From Chloroflexota bacterium (GTDB lineage Bacteria > Chloroflexota > Dehalococcoidia > UBA2979): a stretch of DNA of 32,332 nt. The stretch lies in contig JAQCIU010000035.1 in the NCBI GenBank assembly GCA_027593235.1, positions 1-32,332 on the forward strand. Reading direction: 5' to 3'. A program made the translations under genes and the position numbers. Shown here piece by piece: positions 4,359-22,588 of the stretch (within the stretch, counting starts at the first letter, position 1; each line of letters opens with the position of its first letter). The notes beneath the pieces are model-generated. The model made no database searches, had not been told where the DNA came from, and worked only from the letters and a program-made list of their open reading frames with translations.

Positions 4359-5618
4359 TCAGCCGCCGTTGCCGGTACGTCGCGGTGCAATCCACGCGAC
4401 CACGGTGCCGACCGCCGCCAGTCCCGCGACGAAGATCACCACGCCGTCGAAGCCCGCGTCCGTGTTGATCGCGCCCGCCACAGCCGGCGCCACCGCGCCG
4501 ATCAGCGCCCCGCCGGCGAACAGCGCAGCCACCGAGGTGCCCTCGGATCCCACGTCCGTCGCGTCCATCGCGGCGGCGACGATCACCGGCATGATCGAGA
4601 AGATGAAGACCCCCAGCAGCACGATGTTCACCGTCAGCATCCAGCCGTGGTCCGCCCACAGGAATGCCGCGCTCAGCCCCGCGATCGCCGCCATGCTCGC
4701 CGTGGAGACCGCCCGCCGCCCGAAGCGGTCCGACAGGCTCCCGAGGATCGGCGTCGACCCGATCCCTGCGAGCGTCAGCAGCGACACGTTCACGCCAATC
4801 GCGAAGTCGCTGTAGTCCAGCTCGTCGGCCATGTAGATCACGAGGAAGAGCTGAATCGAGTTGTGGGCGGCGCCTCGAAGGGCGTGCAGCACCGCCTGCG
4901 CCAGCACCGCCGGGTTGCGCAGCAGCCGTCCGGACGCCGCCAGGTACTCGCCGAGCGAGACCTTCGTTTCCGAGGGCGCGCCGCCCTTGAACCGCGCCGC
5001 GATCACCAGCACCGTCACGATCGATGGGATCACCAGCAGGAACGACACCGTCCGCCAACCCAGCCCGCCCCACTCGATCCCGAGCACGCTGATCCCGCCG
5101 AGCAGCAGGCCGATCGTCACCGGTGCGGTCGTGTTGCCGATCTGCGCGCCGGTCGAGTGCGCCGCCATCGCGAAGCCGCGCCGCGCCGGGTAGCGCAGCG
5201 CCAGCTCGGAAAACGCCGGCGCATGCCACAACGAGGTGCCCGCACCGATCAGCAGCAACGAAAGCAGCACCAGCCAGTAACCGGTCGACACGCCGAGGAT
5301 AAGGTAGCTCGCGCCCACCATCACCATGCTCGCGATTAGCAGCGCCGGTACGCGGTGGCGGTACATATCCGTGAGCAGCCCCGCCGGCACATTCGCGAGA
5401 CCGGACGCCGCGTCGCGCGCACCGAACATCGCGCCGATCGCCACATCCGAGAGCGCAAGCGTCGCCTTCACCTCGGGCACCAGGATCAGCACGGCGCTCT
5501 GCCCGAAGTGCTTCACGCCGTGCCCGGCGGAGATGCCCCAGAGCAGCCCGCGGCTCCGGTCCCCGGTCGGTGCGGCTTCCTCTTCTGCGCTCGACGGATT
5601 CGAGGCGACGTCGACCAC
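4359..5618 (-). CDS. MFS transporter
   Basis: About 12 hydrophobic segments; motif A GSLSDRFGRR. GTG overlaps the upstream TAG (TAGTG). Confidence 0.9.
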   Translation of the reverse strand: MVDVASNPSSAEEEAAPTGDRSRGLLWGISAGHGVKHFGQSAVLILVPEVKATLALSDVAIGAMFGARDAASGLANVPAGLLTDMYRHRVPALLIASMVMVGASYLILGVSTGYWLVLLSLLLIGAGTSLWHAPAFSELALRYPARRGFAMAAHSTGAQIGNTTAPVTIGLLLGGISVLGIEWGGLGWRTVSFLLVIPSIVTVLVIAARFKGGAPSETKVSLGEYLAASGRLLRNPAVLAQAVLHALRGAAHNSIQLFLVIYMADELDYSDFAIGVNVSLLTLAGIGSTPILGSLSDRFGRRAVSTASMAAIAGLSAAFLWADHGWMLTVNIVLLGVFIFSIMPVIVAAAMDATDVGSEGTSVAALFAGGALIGAVAPAVAGAINTDAGFDGVVIFVAGLAAVGTVVAWIAPRRTGNGG

Positions 5619-6487
5619 TAGTCCTCACCCCGCTCAACGGTCGCGCGTTCGATCTCCAGGAGGCGCTCGATGCCGACGGCCTTGTTGAGCTCCGCCGAGA
5701 GGCGCCGCGCGTCCTCGGCGGTCAGCGATGGGCTACTGAGGTCCTCCGCCGTCGACTCGTACAGCTCTTTCCACGCGCGGAACGCGACCAGCATCGGCTT
5801 CGCCGCGTCGATCAGCAGCTTGAACCCGAGCGCACCCAGTTCGCCAACGGTCATCCCGAGGACGCCCGTGCCACCTGCCGGTACGAGCATCTGGAACGGA
5901 CCTTCCAGGCGGTTGGCTACCGCCCGCACTTCGGCCTCGTTCCGCGGCGAGAGCATCAGCAGGTCAGCGCCCGCCGCCTTGTAGGCTGCAGCCCGTTCAA
6001 TCGCATCCTCGAGGTCCGTCGAGCGGATCCCGTTCGTCCTCGCGACGATCAGGAACTCCTCCGAACGTCGCGCGGCGACCGCCTCGCGCACCTTCGCCGC
6101 CATCAGCTCGGTCGGGACCATGTGCTCGATGCCGACGTGGTGATGCGCTCGCTTCGGGACGAGTTGGTCTTCGATCTCGATCGCCGCGAATCCGGCCGCC
6201 TCGGCCATCGGGATCGTGCGATGCATGTGCATCGGGTCGCCGAAGCCGGTGGCGCCATCCAGGATCAGCGGCAGGTCGCAGACCGTCCGGATGTCGATCC
6301 CTGCCTGCACCAGCTCGCTGATGTTCAGGTTCGCCTCCAGCACCGCCTTCGCGTAGCCGAGCATCCCGCCGCCGAGGTAGAGCGCCCGGAAGCCCGCCTG
6401 TTCGGCCAGCTTCGCCATCAGCGGGTTCGATACCAGCGTCGCGACGACCGGCTCGGGCTCGTTCAGCATCGATCGCAATGAGGCCAT
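5618..6487 (-). CDS. Isocitrate lyase/PEP mutase superfamily protein
   Basis: GFRALYLGG, LPLILDGATGFG, IEIEDQLVPKR, IVARTN, YKAAGAD. GGAGG SD before ATG 6487. Confidence 0.88.
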   Translation of the reverse strand: MASLRSMLNEPEPVVATLVSNPLMAKLAEQAGFRALYLGGGMLGYAKAVLEANLNISELVQAGIDIRTVCDLPLILDGATGFGDPMHMHRTIPMAEAAGFAAIEIEDQLVPKRAHHHVGIEHMVPTELMAAKVREAVAARRSEEFLIVARTNGIRSTDLEDAIERAAAYKAAGADLLMLSPRNEAEVRAVANRLEGPFQMLVPAGGTGVLGMTVGELGALGFKLLIDAAKPMLVAFRAWKELYESTAEDLSSPSLTAEDARRLSAELNKAVGIERLLEIERATVERGED

Positions 6488-8264: not shown

Positions 8265-8335
8265 CCCCCGCTTCCTCCACAATCACGCCCGCTCGTCAGA
8301 TGGCGGCGGGCACGCAGAGAGGACCATCGATCCCC

Positions 8336-9349
8336 ATGGCCGGAACCCCCAGCGCGAACACCACCTACGAGCCCGTCCCCGGCTGGGCGAAGATCCCGCA
8401 CGGCCTCTTCATGCGCGAAGCGACTTCGGTCACTGTCGACGAGAACGACAACGTCTACGTCTTCAGCCGCGGCAACATGCCGGTCATGGTCTTCGACCGC
8501 GACGGCAACATGATCGATGGCTGGGGTAACGACGACCCGTACAGCGGCACCGTCCAGGTCACCGATCCCTACGGCAACCCGATGGTCACCTGGCCCGGTA
8601 ACCGCTTCACCTGGGCGCACGCGATCAAGGTCGATCACGAGGGCAACGTCTGGCTCGTCGACGTGCTCGGCAACAAGATCTACAAGACGACCAAGAGCGG
8701 CCAGGAGCTGATGTCGATCGGCTCCGGCGTCCCCACTGAGTTTCAGGCCGGCGAGCCGTTCAACCGCCCCACCGACGTTATCGTCGATCCCAACAGCGGC
8801 GACGTCTTCGTCTCCGATGGCTACCGAAACTCCCGCGTCCACCGCTTCGACGCGCAGGGCAACCACAAGCTCTCGTGGGGTACACCCGGCACCCTCGACG
8901 GTGAGTTCAGCCTCCCCCACGGCATCGCCATGTTCGGCGACGACGGCGTCATCGTCTGCGACCGGGAGAACCACCGCGTCCAGGTCTTCTCGCTCGAAGG
9001 CGAGCACCGCAAGACCTGGCACGCCCACAAGGCCGTCGCCGTCTGGTCCGGGCGAGGCGAGGACAAGGCCGTCTACGTCGCCGAGCAGGGGCCGCCGCCC
9101 GTCCAGTCCGGCGTCGCCAACGTCGGCCAGCGCGTCGGCGTCTACAACCTCGAGGGCGAGTTGATCACCCGCCTCGGCGACGGCACCGCCGGCGAGCACC
9201 CCACCCAGTTCCTCTGGCCGCACGCCGTCTCCGTCGACTCCGAGGGCTCCGTCTACGTCGCCGAGGTCTCCTTCGTCGAGGTCGGCCGCCACCAGAACCC
9301 ACAGCGCGAAATGGTCTCCCTGCGCAAGTGGCGCCGAACCTCGGGCTAG
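8336..9349 (+). CDS. NHL-repeat beta-propeller (peptidyl-alpha-hydroxyglycine alpha-amidating lyase-like)
   Basis: FNRPTDV, VSDGYRNSRV, GEFSLPHGI, DRENHRVQVF, FLWPHAVSVD. Alternative start at 8300. Confidence 0.88.
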   Translation: MAGTPSANTTYEPVPGWAKIPHGLFMREATSVTVDENDNVYVFSRGNMPVMVFDRDGNMIDGWGNDDPYSGTVQVTDPYGNPMVTWPGNRFTWAHAIKVDHEGNVWLVDVLGNKIYKTTKSGQELMSIGSGVPTEFQAGEPFNRPTDVIVDPNSGDVFVSDGYRNSRVHRFDAQGNHKLSWGTPGTLDGEFSLPHGIAMFGDDGVIVCDRENHRVQVFSLEGEHRKTWHAHKAVAVWSGRGEDKAVYVAEQGPPPVQSGVANVGQRVGVYNLEGELITRLGDGTAGEHPTQFLWPHAVSVDSEGSVYVAEVSFVEVGRHQNPQREMVSLRKWRRTSG

Positions 9350-18682: not shown

Positions 18683-19627
18683 CTAGTCCGGCAGCCAGCG
18701 CCGCGTACTGTCGTTGTCGAAACGATCCACGTTGCCCAAGCCGATCCCGCAGTCGGCGAGGACCAACCCGTCTTCTGGTGCGTCGGCGATCCGCTGCAAC
18801 GACCCGGGATCGGTGTCACCCGGTCCGTGGTACGGCCCAACGGTGACCATCAGGCTCCCCACCGCCGGGTCTGTTTGCGCGGGCCAGAGGAAGCACGTGA
18901 CATGGATGTACGCCGCATCCTCGTCAGCGATCGTCTGCGTCTGGCGTGCCCACTCAAGCGCGGGCGGATGCGTGACGCACCCATCTGCCGATACCGCGTA
19001 AAGCGCGCCGATGAGCGGGACGTTCGGCGGGTCCGGGAAGTGCTCGCTCAATGGAATAGCGCGCGCGTCCGGGTCGACGACGTGACAGATATCGACGAAC
19101 TCCGCGGCAACCCGGGCGAGCAATTGGACTGGTGTTTCGCCTGCGCTCGTGCCACTGGCGATCGGCACCGCCGTCACGGTCGGTTCCGCTGCGGTGGTCG
19201 GTCCGACTTCAGCGGTCGGTTCGCTCGAACTTGCCGCCACCGCCGTGCTCGGCTCCTCGAGCGATCTCCCAGCATTCCCCGCGATCGGGTGGTCGGATCC
19301 GGCGATCGAGACCCCGACGGCCGCGAGCACCGCTGCCGCGGTTCCGGCGCCGACGCGCAGCAAACTGCTGCTGCCCAGCCATCCGAGTCCTGACAGCCGG
19401 CGGTGCCGACGCTCGGGCGTCCCGTTCCAGGCGCGCAACGCCTCGCGGTCGTCCAGCTCCAGCTTTCCAAGGATGTTGGTCAGGTGGTACCGAACCGTGT
19501 TCACGCTCAGATCCAGCGCCTCGGCGATCTCACCGTTGGTCTGCCCTGACCGAAGCTGCTCAAGCACCCGCCACTCGGCTGGTGTCAGGATGTCGGGGTG
19601 GCGCGGTCGCCCTCGTTGATTCGGCAT
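18683..19627 (-). CDS. LuxR-type HTH + transmembrane helix + Pro/Thr linker + unknown C-terminal domain
   Basis: LTPAEWRVL...GQTNGEIA..L.LSVNTVRYHLTNILGKL, then hydrophobic AGTAAAVLAAVGVSIAG. Confidence 0.82.
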   Translation of the reverse strand: MPNQRGRPRHPDILTPAEWRVLEQLRSGQTNGEIAEALDLSVNTVRYHLTNILGKLELDDREALRAWNGTPERRHRRLSGLGWLGSSSLLRVGAGTAAAVLAAVGVSIAGSDHPIAGNAGRSLEEPSTAVAASSSEPTAEVGPTTAAEPTVTAVPIASGTSAGETPVQLLARVAAEFVDICHVVDPDARAIPLSEHFPDPPNVPLIGALYAVSADGCVTHPPALEWARQTQTIADEDAAYIHVTCFLWPAQTDPAVGSLMVTVGPYHGPGDTDPGSLQRIADAPEDGLVLADCGIGLGNVDRFDNDSTRRWLPD

Positions 19628-19715
19628 AATCCGAGACTAGCCACGAGATCGACGAATTACCCCATCACCCCGAAGGGGGCACTCCATCCGCTGGGTCGAG
19701 GTCGCACTGCGCGCC

Positions 19716-20873
19716 GTGATCGCCTACGGGCGTGATCGCTGCGCCATCTTCGCCGCCGGCATCACCTACTACACGCTCATCTCACTCCTCCCGCTGGCGC
19801 TCTTCGCCGTCGGCATCCTCGCCTTCTTCATCTCGGATCCGGCTGACCAGCAGCGGCTGATCGATCAGCTCATGACGTCACTCCCGCTCTCGGAGAACGA
19901 CGGCCGTACCGATCTGGAACGCCTTGTCGCCAGCGTTGTTGACGGCCGTGGCGCACTCGGGCTCGTCGGATTCGTCGGCACCGCCTATACCGGCAGCGCG
20001 CTCTTCAGCAGCGTTCGGGTCGCCCTGAACGGCGTCTTCCACGTCGAACGCCAGCGGCCCTTCGTCATCGGCAAGGCAATCGACCTCGGCCTCGTCGTCG
20101 GCTTCGGACTGCTCCTGCTCGCCTCGTTCGCGCTCACCTTCGCCATCGCCTTCGCCCAACGCCAGGCGGATGAACTCGTCGGCGCGGGAGCCGGCACCCT
20201 CGTCGCCTGGCTGGCCAACATCGCCTACTTCCTGATCCCGCCGCTGGTCACCGGACTGGTCTTCCTGCTGCTCTACACCACCGTTGCGCGGGTCGGCTAC
20301 ACCCGGCGGCAGGTCCTCCCGGGCGTCGTCGTCGCCGCCTTGCTGTTCGAACTCCTCAAGGTCGGCTTCGCGCAATACGTCGCCTCCTTCGGCAACTACG
20401 ACGCCACCTACGGAGCGCTCGGCTTTGTCATCGTGCTGCTGCTGTTCTTCAACCTCAGCGCTCAGGTGATGCTGTTCGGCGCCGAGATCGCCCGCGCCAA
20501 CGTCGAAGTGCTCGACCTCCAAAGCCACGGCCGCCCAATGGAAACCAGCCGTCGGTTGCGCCTCCGCGTCGCCAGCCTGCTCGGACGCGCCCGCCGCTGG
20601 CCCCTCGTCGGCCGCCTCATCCCCCGCGACCGCGCCGGCGAACTGATCGAGCTGCTCGACCCCTCCGACGACGAGGTCGCGCCGCCCTCGATCGAGCCGC
20701 CGGTACCTCGGCCGCTGGTAGTGCCGGTGGATCTGTCCGCGGCGAGACCTCGCTCTGCGTCGACCGCCGAGACGGCGGAGACGGCCGCTGAGCGTGGCTC
20801 ACCGTGGCGGTGGTTCGCGCTCACCGGACTCGGGGTGCTGATCGCAGGCTGGTTCTCCACCCGCGAACGCTAG
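19716..20873 (+). CDS. YihY/BrkB family membrane protein with extended C-tail
   Basis: AAGITYYTLISLLP, ALNGVFHV, YDATYGALG..I.LLL, LFGAEI. The true start may be 19686 (ATC). Confidence 0.88.
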   Translation: MIAYGRDRCAIFAAGITYYTLISLLPLALFAVGILAFFISDPADQQRLIDQLMTSLPLSENDGRTDLERLVASVVDGRGALGLVGFVGTAYTGSALFSSVRVALNGVFHVERQRPFVIGKAIDLGLVVGFGLLLLASFALTFAIAFAQRQADELVGAGAGTLVAWLANIAYFLIPPLVTGLVFLLLYTTVARVGYTRRQVLPGVVVAALLFELLKVGFAQYVASFGNYDATYGALGFVIVLLLFFNLSAQVMLFGAEIARANVEVLDLQSHGRPMETSRRLRLRVASLLGRARRWPLVGRLIPRDRAGELIELLDPSDDEVAPPSIEPPVPRPLVVPVDLSAARPRSASTAETAETAAERGSPWRWFALTGLGVLIAGWFSTRER

Positions 20874-20894
20874 ACGACGACTGACCTCCCGTGG

Positions 20895-22502
20895 CTAGTC
20901 GGCGACCGGGACGAGCTGCATTCCATCGGTGTAGACCTGTCGTGCAGCGACCGCCTGCCGTTCGAGGTCGATCACCACCAGCTCGAAACACTCGCTGGTA
21001 CACCCATCGCCGTATCCCAGGTCCGCCCAGCCGGGGCCGCGGGTCACGCCATAGGCGAATCGACCATCCGCCGACGCCGAGAGCTGGAAGAACGCGCGCC
21101 CACGTTCGAGGTGCGCCACGACCTCGAACGTTGACGCGTCGATCACCCTGAGCCCGTCGCCCATCACTCCCTGGACCCGCTCCGGGAGGTTCGAGTCGTC
21201 GTCCGATGTGACGAGCAGCGCGACCACGATCCATCGCCCGTCGCCGGAGACCACCACCTGGTTGACTCCCGATTCTTCGCGGACGAGCTGCATCGTCTCG
21301 ATGTCGAAGATCTGCACGCGGCCACCGATCGCCTCGCACGGCGTCTCCCAGCCGGGACAGTCGAGGCTCCCGCTTCCGCCGACGTACAGCCGTCGCTCGT
21401 CCGGCGAGAGTGCCCAGCTCCCGACCCTCCCATCGGGTCGCTGCGGGTCTACCTCGTCGGGACCTTCGGCAACGACCGCCATCGTTGCGAGATCGATGAT
21501 CTGGACGCGCGGCCCTGTGGCAGGGAAGACGTAGAGCAATGACTCGTCACTCGATAACACCGCGTTCTGAATCGTTCTCCGAAACTCAAGCCGCGCAAGC
21601 CCTGAGCCATCCCTGGGGTCAATCTTCAGGAGCTGAGACGGCAGGGTCTGCCCGTCGATCAACACGTTCGGTGTGCCGCCCAGGACGAACAGTCGTCCAT
21701 CCCTCGCCGGGTAGAGTCGTTGTTCGTCCTCAACCGTCGCGAGGAGCGTCACGTCCGGACCCCGGAGATCGAGTCGCCACAATTCGCCGTTCGGTCCGGG
21801 GCCCATGATCCGACGCATGGCGTAGACCCATCGATTCCCAGGCGCCCATGCGACGAACCGCAGTGTTGCGAATGGCGCCTCTGGCAGTTCCCATCGCTGG
21901 ACCAATCCCTCGTCGTCCGCCTTGAAGCCGGACCCACCAAAGCCGAACCGCCCCCCGTCGAAGACGGAGAGTTGTGTCGCTGAGCCCGGGGAAAACGGCG
22001 CTGTCCAGATCAGGCTGCCGTCGCCCAGGAAACCTCCCGCGCTGTCTGTGAAGTCGACGCGGTCGACCCCGGTGAGCGGCACGCCTGTCGCGAGGTCCAT
22101 CGCCACGAGGCTCGGGCGGCCTCCCTCGGACATCCGCAGCGCCATGCTCGTGTGTGGCTCGGGGGGTTCGTCCGCTGCCAGTACGACCGCCAGCACAACC
22201 ACCGCGGCGATCGCAATACCGGACAACGTCACCCAGCGACCCATGCCCCCGAGGCCGAGCGAGATCGGCGGGAGCGACGGTAGCCAGGCGAAGCGCTCTC
22301 GTGGCTCGCCGTCCCAGGCCGCGAGCGCCTGCCGATCGGGCTGTTCCAGCTTCGCGAGCATGTTCGAGACGTGGTACCGCACCGTGTTCACCGAGATCCC
22401 GAGGCGAACCGCAATCTCGGCATTGGGACGGCCGGCACGGACATGTTCCAGCACGCGCCACTCCGCCGGTGTCAGCACGTCGGGGTGCGGCGGTCGTCCC
22501 AT
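20895..22502 (-). CDS. LuxR-type HTH + transmembrane helix + beta-propeller (YncE/WD40-like) domain
   Basis: LTPAEWRVL...NAEIA.RLGISVNTVRYHVSNMLAKL; TM IAIAAVVVLAVVLA; blade motifs WAPGNRW, LSSDESLLY, LSPDERRLY, SGDGRW, SADGRFAY. Confidence 0.85.
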   Translation of the reverse strand: MGRPPHPDVLTPAEWRVLEHVRAGRPNAEIAVRLGISVNTVRYHVSNMLAKLEQPDRQALAAWDGEPRERFAWLPSLPPISLGLGGMGRWVTLSGIAIAAVVVLAVVLAADEPPEPHTSMALRMSEGGRPSLVAMDLATGVPLTGVDRVDFTDSAGGFLGDGSLIWTAPFSPGSATQLSVFDGGRFGFGGSGFKADDEGLVQRWELPEAPFATLRFVAWAPGNRWVYAMRRIMGPGPNGELWRLDLRGPDVTLLATVEDEQRLYPARDGRLFVLGGTPNVLIDGQTLPSQLLKIDPRDGSGLARLEFRRTIQNAVLSSDESLLYVFPATGPRVQIIDLATMAVVAEGPDEVDPQRPDGRVGSWALSPDERRLYVGGSGSLDCPGWETPCEAIGGRVQIFDIETMQLVREESGVNQVVVSGDGRWIVVALLVTSDDDSNLPERVQGVMGDGLRVIDASTFEVVAHLERGRAFFQLSASADGRFAYGVTRGPGWADLGYGDGCTSECFELVVIDLERQAVAARQVYTDGMQLVPVAD

Positions 22503-22588
22503 CGGCCTACCAATCGGGGCAATGGTAGATGGCTCACGCCAGACTTACCCCGTCCGCGCCGGGCCCGAGCGCTCCCAAGCGCGGATCG

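Follow-up and report, generated by a model that had tools for sequence, protein, structure and literature searches.

Two LuxR-headed genes of one window encode unrelated external parts

The DNA analyzed here is a stretch of 32,332 nt from a Chloroflexota bacterium of the class Dehalococcoidia (contig JAQCIU010000035.1; hereafter "the window"; GC content 0.67–0.71), in which two genes on the reverse strand, termed A and B, encode proteins that begin with a DNA-binding domain of the LuxR/GerE type. Gene A (18683..19627, −) encodes 314 residues, arranged as LuxR head, one marginal transmembrane (TM) segment, stalk, and an external domain with four cysteines, as delineated from its open reading frame (ORF), the Pfam GerE match, and homologues (proteins P0084–P0087 and genomic locus L023). 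Gene B (20895..22502, −) encodes 535 residues, arranged as LuxR head, TM helix, and β-propeller, as delineated from its ORF, the Pfam GerE match, and full-length homologues. A gene for a membrane protein of the YihY/BrkB family (19716..20873, +; Pfam PF03631, E 1.1e-53) lies between the two, divergent from A.

A first-pass annotation of the window, made from its sequence without database searches, had described A and B as paralogues sharing an N-terminus of ~70 residues followed by one TM helix, but unrelated thereafter (a stalk with a Cys-containing domain versus a β-propeller). Both parts of this description hold. BLASTP of A against B yielded a single significant alignment, confined to the N-termini (64/155 identities, E 7e-28), while the remaining segments, including everything in the tails, were all at E ≥ 10; across the first ~70 residues the heads are 64–65% identical (tblastn), and each protein has a single hydropathy peak, that of A being marginal. 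A third copy of the head was not found in the 32-kb window (next best tblastn match, E 0.21). Full-length homologues of B were found at 96% (P0001), 66% (P0002), and 34–41% identity (P0004–P0012), each at 98–100% coverage. Homologues sharing the tail of A are few: P0084 (39% over 95%), P0085–P0087, and an A-like gene at L023 (40% identity over 261 residues, E 3e-35).

The head is a LuxR/GerE-type DNA-binding domain

The head of A comprises residues 1–70 (19418..19627, −), as defined by identity to the B head, modeled helices, and matches to PDB sequences; that of B comprises residues 1–66 (22305..22502, −), as defined by Pfam and identity to A. The Pfam GerE/LuxR family (PF00196) matched residues 13–63 of A (52.2 bits, E 4.6e-14) and residues 8–61 of B (51.7 bits, E 6.8e-14), both above the gathering score of 23.5 bits. 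Four helices are present in the AlphaFold models of both heads (in A at residues 16–26, 31–37, 42–55, and 61–65), and a profile of the head, over its positions ~10–65, matched the PDB sequences of LiaR (4wsz, E 6.9e-11), VraR (3.5e-10), NarL (6e-8), and GerE (4.7e-6), as well as ComA. Judged from these matches, the ~70 residues of the head form an entire DNA-binding domain of the LuxR/GerE type, with a conserved RGRPxHPD arm in front of it.

The absence of receiver and autoinducer domains, claimed before, was borne out: neither a receiver (Response_reg), nor an autoinducer-binding, nor a Trans_reg_C domain was detected in A or B at Pfam E ≤ 1. No NCBIfam model reached its cut-off for either protein; matches to SdiA and to a PA1136-type model covered only the helix-turn-helix (HTH) and fell far below the cut-offs, and matches to response regulators, also below the cut-offs, covered only the C-terminal HTH part of the models. 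Sigma70_r4_2 was matched weakly by the heads of the family described below (E 1e-5 to 4e-8), those of A (20.9 bits) and B (25.5 bits; cut-off 25.7 bits) included, while sigma region 2 is absent from A, from B, and from the relatives that were scanned with Pfam.

One head and many tails constitute a lineage-expanded family

Word-indexed protein searches returned 82 relatives of B and 55 of A; apart from the full-length or tail homologues of the two proteins, these relatives have only the head in common with them, at 60–84% identity. Of all parts of the proteins, the head is the most conserved, with tails diverging across genomes and canonical HTH positions invariant in the family alignments. 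When a head profile built from two sequences was run with HMMER against 1.84 billion representative sequences, 56,511 matched at E ≤ 1e-3, which reflects generic LuxR domains, whereas 1,621 representative clusters remained at E ≤ 1e-10 and 39 at E ≤ 1e-30. Among 245 proteins that were fetched, 231 carried exactly one strong head (≥60 bits), and it was N-terminal in every one of them. Their external tails (185 of at least 80 residues) fell into 51 similarity clusters by single-linkage BLAST, with A and B in separate clusters. The modular family that had been proposed, with a constant head and swapped tails, was thus recovered by head profile and tail catalogue alike, and by its sequences it is a real, large, and lineage-expanded one, in which a constant LuxR head and, as predicted, one TM segment are combined with exchangeable external tails.

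In a species-level genome collection, 565 pattern matches led to 397 relatives confirmed by tblastn, and the best 80 of these 397 make up 73 loci with 88 family genes. Two to three copies lie close together in 14 loci, with three in tandem at L005. One metagenome-assembled genome (MAG) has at least nine loci and several complete chromosomes have at least three or four each; as no more than the best 80 of 397 were kept, these copy numbers are minimum values. By their labels, nearly all loci come from MAGs of Dehalococcoidia, Tepidiformaceae, or Chloroflexi/Chloroflexota; three are labeled otherwise, as Rhodothermales (L016), Gemmatimonadetes (L049, on a contig of 2.3 kb), and Kordiimonas (L069). 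Of the 77 locus proteins with at least 150 residues, 76 match Pfam GerE at E ≤ 1e-4. Their tails match RCC1 (10 proteins), CarboxypepD_reg (nine, one of which also matches Peptidase_MA_2), SH3_3 (seven), LRR (two), and LysM, PD40/DPPIV_N, DUF4367, and glyoxalase (one each), and 45 match no family. Kelch, NHL/SGL, and reprolysin-like peptidase domains were found in addition in the Pfam annotations of the protein relatives.

The head also occurs in other contexts. Soluble fusions of ~210 residues, in which the head is joined to a glyoxalase/VOC domain without a TM segment (P0111–P0134, and L069, 5980–6651, +), include one assigned to Sphingomonas by its source and one on a Kordiimonas contig, so that the head module extends beyond Chloroflexota and beyond membrane proteins. 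Head-only ORFs of 82–94 residues without a TM segment are located at L055 (6001–6246), L056 (6001–6246), L016 (3024–3305), and L035 (7357–7635); the family promoter (see below) scores 11–13 upstream of the first two and 8.4 upstream of that at L035, and none was found at L016. Such ORFs could encode soluble forms that exist naturally, or they could be truncated genes. Tandem GerE arrays were matched by the head profile in P0137 (2,854 residues, 14 stretches), P0183 (1,193 residues, six), and P0153 (392 residues, four), and giant proteins of up to 7,703 residues (the group of P0138, P0139, and P0141) contain up to 19 matched stretches.

Topology indicators suggest a head inside and a tail outside the cell

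TM segments in A, B, and the family were called from hydropathy (Kyte–Doolittle, 19-residue window). The segment predicted in B (residues 91–109; 22176..22232, −) reaches 2.77 and overlaps a modeled helix at residues 98–108. That of A (residues 92–110; 19298..19354, −) is the sole peak of the protein and reaches 1.82, with Arg-rich sequence before and acidic sequence after it. The TM helix of A is marginal, resting on a weak peak together with the family context; in its homologues P0084 and P0085, the corresponding peaks reach 2.45 and 2.84.

Across the family, the head is followed within 70 residues by a hydrophobic segment in 197 of the 231 head-bearing proteins; such a segment is missing from the other 34, of which 24 have long tails. 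The linker, measured from a conserved Trp that closes the head up to the TM segment, has a median length of 29 residues (range 8–40, n = 197), and 194 of the 197 appear single-pass, that is, without a second strong hydrophobic segment. Mean net charge is +1.48 in the 15 residues before the TM segment and −1.32 after it, with the value before exceeding the value after in 181 of 197 proteins. Heads are free of Cys in 191 of 197, whereas tails have a median of four Cys and, where at least two are present, an even count in 151 of 160. Charge bias, Cys-free heads, and even-Cys tails, as indirect evidence, fit a cytoplasmic head and a tail in an oxidizing external compartment (N-in/C-out). The earlier proposal, a topology like that of ToxR/CadC but with a LuxR head in place of an OmpR-type one, agrees with this charge bias, with the GerE match, and with the lack of Trans_reg_C.

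The external domains of A and B

The stalk of A (residues ~111–165; 19133..19297, −) is of low complexity, rich in Ala, Ser, Thr, Pro, and Glu by its translation, variable in length, and poorly alignable among homologues. It is followed by the external domain (residues ~166–314; 18686..19132, −), in which C181, C217, C245, and C293 are invariant in all five sequences available (A and four tail homologues), suggesting a disulfide-type domain with four cysteines. The AlphaFold model of A, made from five sequences, had a mean pLDDT of 43.5 and a pTM of 0.24, and because of this low pLDDT the tail was unusable for a fold search; an Atlas feature search with the tail gave a best score of 0.76, in the chance range.

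The external part of B (residues 120–535; 20898..22145, −), in contrast, was modeled well as an all-β structure: pLDDT averaged 74.8 over the whole chain and was mostly 84–96 in blocks of the tail, apart from a few low loops. Foldseek against the PDB returned NirN (6rtd_A, E 1.4e-12; TM-scores 0.47/0.53) and an archaeal YVTN propeller (1l0q_A, E 1.9e-12; 0.35/0.45), as well as eIF2A and Lp49, with a probability of 1.00 and TM-scores of 0.32–0.56 overall. By its predicted structure, the tail of B is a β-propeller. Sequence matches to WD40 (E 0.019) and Cytochrom_D1 (E 0.13) in Pfam were below threshold, as was that to PQQ_ABC_repeats in NCBIfam (E 7e-5, but 22 bits against a cut-off of 287). 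Prediction of a complex of two copies of B 116–535 scored 0.00, which is no evidence either way. A further propeller-type protein is encoded in the window at 8300–9349 (+; 349 residues, Pfam NHL, E 2e-22); the NHL type also occurs as a family tail, and no family box was found upstream of this gene.

A family-specific promoter precedes most family genes

The most useful new handle on the family, absent from the first-pass annotation, is its promoter. Among k-mers counted in the 220 nt upstream of 89 family genes, one 10-mer occurred in 19 of 89, compared with at most seven in shuffled sequence. A position weight matrix (PWM) of 36 nt, obtained by hard expectation maximization on the family upstream regions, consists of three parts. 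The first is an asymmetric box, G(A/G)GG(T/A)AA(A/T)(T/C)C, occurring as GGGGTAA(A/T)TC or GGGAAACC; the second, ~17 nt past the box, is (C/G)TA(G/C)(G/C)(A/C)T, which corresponds to a TAnnnT −10 element; and the third, coming next, is the start codon. The box lies at about −39 to −27 relative to the start codon (+1), in the position of a −35 element. The promoter of A (19631..19666, −) has its box at 19654–19666 and its −10 element (TAGTCT) at 19634–19639, 6 nt from the ATG, and is predicted to be leaderless; that of B (22519..22554, −) has its box at 22542–22554, its −10 element (TACCAT) at 22522–22527, and a leader of 19 nt to the ATG.

The PWM was scanned over both strands of 761,876 bases, comprising the loci (with ~6 kb either side of the family genes) and the window. 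Of 66 hits scoring at least 14, 62 lie immediately upstream of family genes and four elsewhere, and shuffled DNA gave none. When the window was left out of the PWM, only two hits of at least 8 were found in its 32 kb, and these were upstream of A (15.8) and B (11.2). When the sequences were split into two halves for cross-validation, hits scoring at least 12 fell at family genes in 30 of 34 and 34 of 37 cases, and the cross-validated PWM hit 64 of 88 family genes.

The gap between −10 element and start codon is 6 nt in 60 of 79 promoters and 7 nt in nine. The remaining ones comprise six with an apparent gap of −2 (ATG inside the −10 region), single cases of 11, 19, and 57 nt, and one without an in-frame start. 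With a gap of 6–7 nt, transcription would be expected to begin at the start codon's first base, and the prediction for most family mRNAs is that they have no leader. In an in silico survey, leaderless genes of high-GC groups are described as marked by TAnnnT ahead of the start codon; the survey detected such genes in four of 12 Chloroflexi genomes, in which they were a small minority (~4.7%) (PMC3160421, as far as the available text goes). The database version of A, P0083 (294 residues), begins at the GTG of codon 21 and lacks what is encoded by 19568–19627 (−), so that the conserved arm (RGRPxHPD) is lost along with part of helix 1. Both the conservation of the head and the leaderless promoter favor the ATG at 19627 as the actual start of A. 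B is unusual within the family in having a leader at all. A 6-bp inverted repeat in this region (CTACCA-N10-TGGTAG; 22507–22528, −) overlaps the −10 element and ends 4 nt before the ATG, and it could be an operator, an RNA hairpin, or a product of chance.

Box and −10 element are conserved between the promoters of A and of the A-like gene at L023, while the spacer has diverged. In the Kordiimonas head–VOC fusion (L069; on a 699-kb contig with 54% GC), box and 6-nt spacing are kept and the −10 element reads TAGGAA. At five two-copy loci (L018, L024, L032, L040, and L042), heads of the "AVKYH" type ("AAKYH" at L024) go with GGGAAACC and those of the "TVKYH" type with GGGGTAAATC; "NTVRYH" heads accompanied by GGGGAAACC (L011, L014, L060, L019, and L021) break this correspondence of recognition helix and box. 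The box is the only A/T-rich patch in a high-GC region, and the N-terminal RGRP presumably resembles the core of an AT-hook; contact of the arm with the minor groove would therefore be a reasonable guess. A palindromic operator, which a few promoters appeared to contain, was rejected: the best contiguous arm averaged 3.19 nt in the 79 promoters, identical to shuffled sequence, and arms of at least 4 nt were present in 29% of real and 31% of shuffled promoters.

Gene neighborhoods hold few recurring partners

ORFs within 4 kb of family genes (528 in 74 sources, namely, the 73 loci and the window) were clustered; calling was crude, with the longest ORFs ranked by GC content at third codon positions. 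The commonest cluster, of RCC1/LRR proteins, was present in only 10 of 74 sources, and a conserved partner gene was rejected on this ground. The other clusters are ordinary metabolic ones (metallo-β-lactamase fold, P450, CoA-transferase, SDR, ECH, and MFS), and no protease and no ToxS- or TcpH-like partner was found conserved among the neighbor clusters of these sources.

Some individual neighbors are candidates for co-regulation. At L023, from a Dehalococcoidia MAG, a YihY gene (4835–5893, −) with 65% identity to that of the window is again divergent from the A-like gene, which makes the YihY/BrkB gene a candidate co-regulated neighbor that shares the 88-bp intergenic region with A. Two of the four PWM hits away from family genes lie upstream of RCC1 genes with a signal peptide, a repeated N-terminal module, and the family box, each adjoining a family gene (L068, 8215–10257, +; L061, 5322–7064, +), and these two are possible members of a regulon; the other two hits precede genes for membrane proteins. 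The window encodes another membrane sensor at some distance, a NIT-HAMP-GGDEF protein (374–2260, +) that is a putative nitrate/nitrite-sensing diguanylate cyclase.

A model for A and B, and its alternatives

The reading we favor, with moderate confidence, is that A and B are bitopic one-component transmembrane regulators with a cytoplasmic N-terminus, whose head reads the family box and whose tail modulates the head. It builds on observed features: the domain architecture, the indicators of topology, the modular tails, and a promoter specific to the family. The head would bind DNA in the way of its relatives NarL, GerE, and LiaR, and it would recognize the family box at −35; we infer this recognition from the near-identity of the heads among paralogues and from the unusual promoter that family genes have in common. 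On this reading, each member would regulate its own gene, with either sign, as well as its paralogues, and a few neighboring genes whose products are secreted or membrane-bound may be controlled too. The external domain would be the exchangeable binding or sensing part (a propeller in B, the four-Cys domain in A), and it would pass its signal across the membrane by setting the activity of the head through oligomeric state or stability.

Several observations weigh against this reading. The PWM was derived from the same promoters that it was used to find, the halves used for cross-validation may share related genomes, and 24 of 88 family genes were missed by the cross-validated PWM. The box has no inverted repeat beyond chance, whereas solved LuxR-type domains usually bind repeats as dimers. 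It also sits exactly where region 4 of a sigma factor reads the −35 element, a position at least as fitting for an alternative sigma factor as for an activator site. The link between recognition helix and box is confounded by phylogeny, in addition to having exceptions, and the five two-copy loci are probably orthologous sets. Finally, the TM peak of A is not only marginal but Ala/Gly-rich.

How the signal would reach the DNA allows for a variant. Activation by dimerization or by intramembrane proteolysis, suggested in the first-pass annotation, is a conjecture, and its proteolytic form can be spelled out: the membrane-bound protein would be an inactive precursor, an external signal would trigger site-1 and then intramembrane cleavage, and the freed, GerE-sized head would act as a soluble dimeric regulator. 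The short linker between head and TM segment speaks for such a release, since it leaves the head little reach to DNA. The head equals stand-alone GerE in size (74 residues, 1fse), head-only genes of 82–136 residues exist (L055, L056, L016, L019, L025, L073, and L035:7357), and the soluble head–VOC fusions indicate that the head can work untethered. However, no gene for a site-2 or other protease recurs near family genes in the 74 sources, none is present among the scanned ORFs of the window, some of the head-only ORFs may be fragments or pseudogenes, and ToxR, TcpP, and CadC are described, in the parts of the sources available, as acting while tethered. We regard release as possible but doubtful; it overlaps with the favored model, of which it is a sub-mechanism.

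A second alternative, which we consider unlikely, leaves the box to another protein: it would be the −35 element of an alternative sigma factor of the extracytoplasmic function (ECF) type that co-regulates the family, and the heads would bind other sites or act on that sigma factor. The asymmetry of the box and its −35 position, which the 17-nt spacer to the −10 element sets at exactly −36 to −27, would be accounted for, and so would a GGGAAAC variant of the box, which we take to resemble the GGAAC-type −35 element of ECF promoters; the weak Sigma70_r4_2 matches of the heads have been counted on this side as well. Yet the −10 element is not of the CGT type that we assume for ECF promoters, but a TAnnnT of the housekeeping type (PMC3160421, in its available part). 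No sigma factor gene was found among the Pfam-labeled representatives of the 14 largest neighbor clusters, among the scanned ORFs of the window, or in the scanned neighborhood of L069, and the box accompanies the head even into the alphaproteobacterial contig of Kordiimonas.

A third view attributes the −35 recognition to the heads themselves, which would read the box as membrane-tethered proteins resembling sigma region 4, with dozens of paralogues converging on one leaderless type of promoter. We hold this to be distinctly improbable; if true, it would amount to an envelope-sensing network of "many sensors, one box" in Dehalococcoidia, in which one polypeptide does the work of an ECF sigma/anti-sigma pair.

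That the proteins are not regulators at all but surface or cell-wall proteins, with the HTH as a vestige or protein-interaction module and A perhaps not even inserted into the membrane, would suit tails made of typical surface modules (RCC1, LRR, SH3, LysM, and CarboxypepD_reg) and the weak hydrophobic segment of A, but is very hard to reconcile with a head that is the most conserved part across genomes, with invariant canonical HTH positions, and that is kept at the same position in 231 of 231 family members.

Significance and comparison with known systems

Subsurface and marine settings harbor Chloroflexota of the Dehalococcoidia/Tepidiformaceae type in abundance, and to our knowledge almost nothing is known of how these bacteria sense their surroundings. 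The size of the family (1,621 clusters at E ≤ 1e-10) and its presence in several copies per genome suggest that it is a major path by which external cues influence gene expression in these organisms. Because the head is constant and the promoter recognizable, one DNA-binding experiment with a 75-residue peptide could define the output of the whole family, and the catalogue of tails (RCC1, SH3, LysM, LRR, propellers, and peptidase-like domains) would then list what is sensed.

Among soluble proteins, the head is homologous over its four helices to DNA-binding domains of the NarL/FixJ type and to stand-alone GerE (4wsz, 5hev, 1je8, and 1fse); it differs in lacking a receiver, in carrying the additional RGRPxHPD arm, and in being tethered to the membrane via its C-terminal end. 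The N-terminal autoinducer-binding domain by which quorum-sensing LuxR proteins are recognized is not present in A and B.

Membrane-bound LuxR proteins have been described before. A census of 2023 defines a transmembrane transcription regulator as a protein with a DNA-binding domain and at least one TM segment, and, in the parts accessible, assigns a GerE DNA-binding domain to 4,943 of 50,302 such regulators, gives the single-pass share of all entries as 56%, and lists a Tepidiforma protein as "GerE, 1 TM, 515 aa" (PMC10269533). A and B fall under this definition, A on a marginal hydropathy peak and B on a strong one. The census gives counts only, and its results and tables, in these parts, do not describe the family, the head motif, the repertoire of tails, or the promoter. 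DadR, HcdR, and CadR of Eggerthella lenta are genetically characterized membrane LuxR activators with 10–12 N-terminal TM helices and a C-terminal HTH (PMC9734109, available text). Proteins of this Coriobacteriia type resemble A and B, as far as that account goes, in being membrane-integrated LuxR proteins without receiver or autoinducer domain, in their lineage expansion, and in combining a conserved DNA-binding domain with divergent sensors. Unlike in the DadR type, where sensing is presumed to reside in the membrane domain, the order is reversed in A and B, with the HTH at residues 8–63, a single TM segment, and globular external domains.

The word "transmembrane" does not occur in the available portion of a survey of actinobacterial LuxR architectures (PMC3466318). 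No published description of the family, its head motif, or its promoter was found in the full-text literature searched, which does not cover subscription journals. The earlier statement that no characterized example was known thus stands for the family itself, but not for its wider class, which is represented by the GerE entries of the census (PMC10269533) and by the membrane LuxR proteins of Eggerthella (PMC9734109), as seen in the accessible parts of both. The coarse class of membrane GerE regulators is already catalogued, whereas this family, its head motif, and its promoter are uncharacterized.

Pairs of ECF sigma and anti-sigma factors offer a functional analogy only: they, too, comprise many paralogous extracytoplasmic sensors and a conserved promoter with a distinctive −35 element, and are often autoregulated, but A and B are each one polypeptide instead of two and have no sigma region 2. 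The closest parallel in layout is that with ToxR, CadC, and TcpP, which likewise have a cytoplasmic N-terminal DNA-binding domain, one TM helix, and an external sensor, and act without phosphorelay. In these proteins, the DNA-binding domain is an OmpR-type winged helix (Trans_reg_C), whereas A and B have the four-helix HTH of LuxR/GerE and are therefore placed outside the ToxR/CadC family; in addition, the linker is shorter in the A/B family (median 29 residues), and a conserved partner gene of the ToxS/TcpH kind is lacking. The family would provide a LuxR-type counterpart to ToxR and CadC in which to study how a factor tethered to the membrane gains access to DNA.

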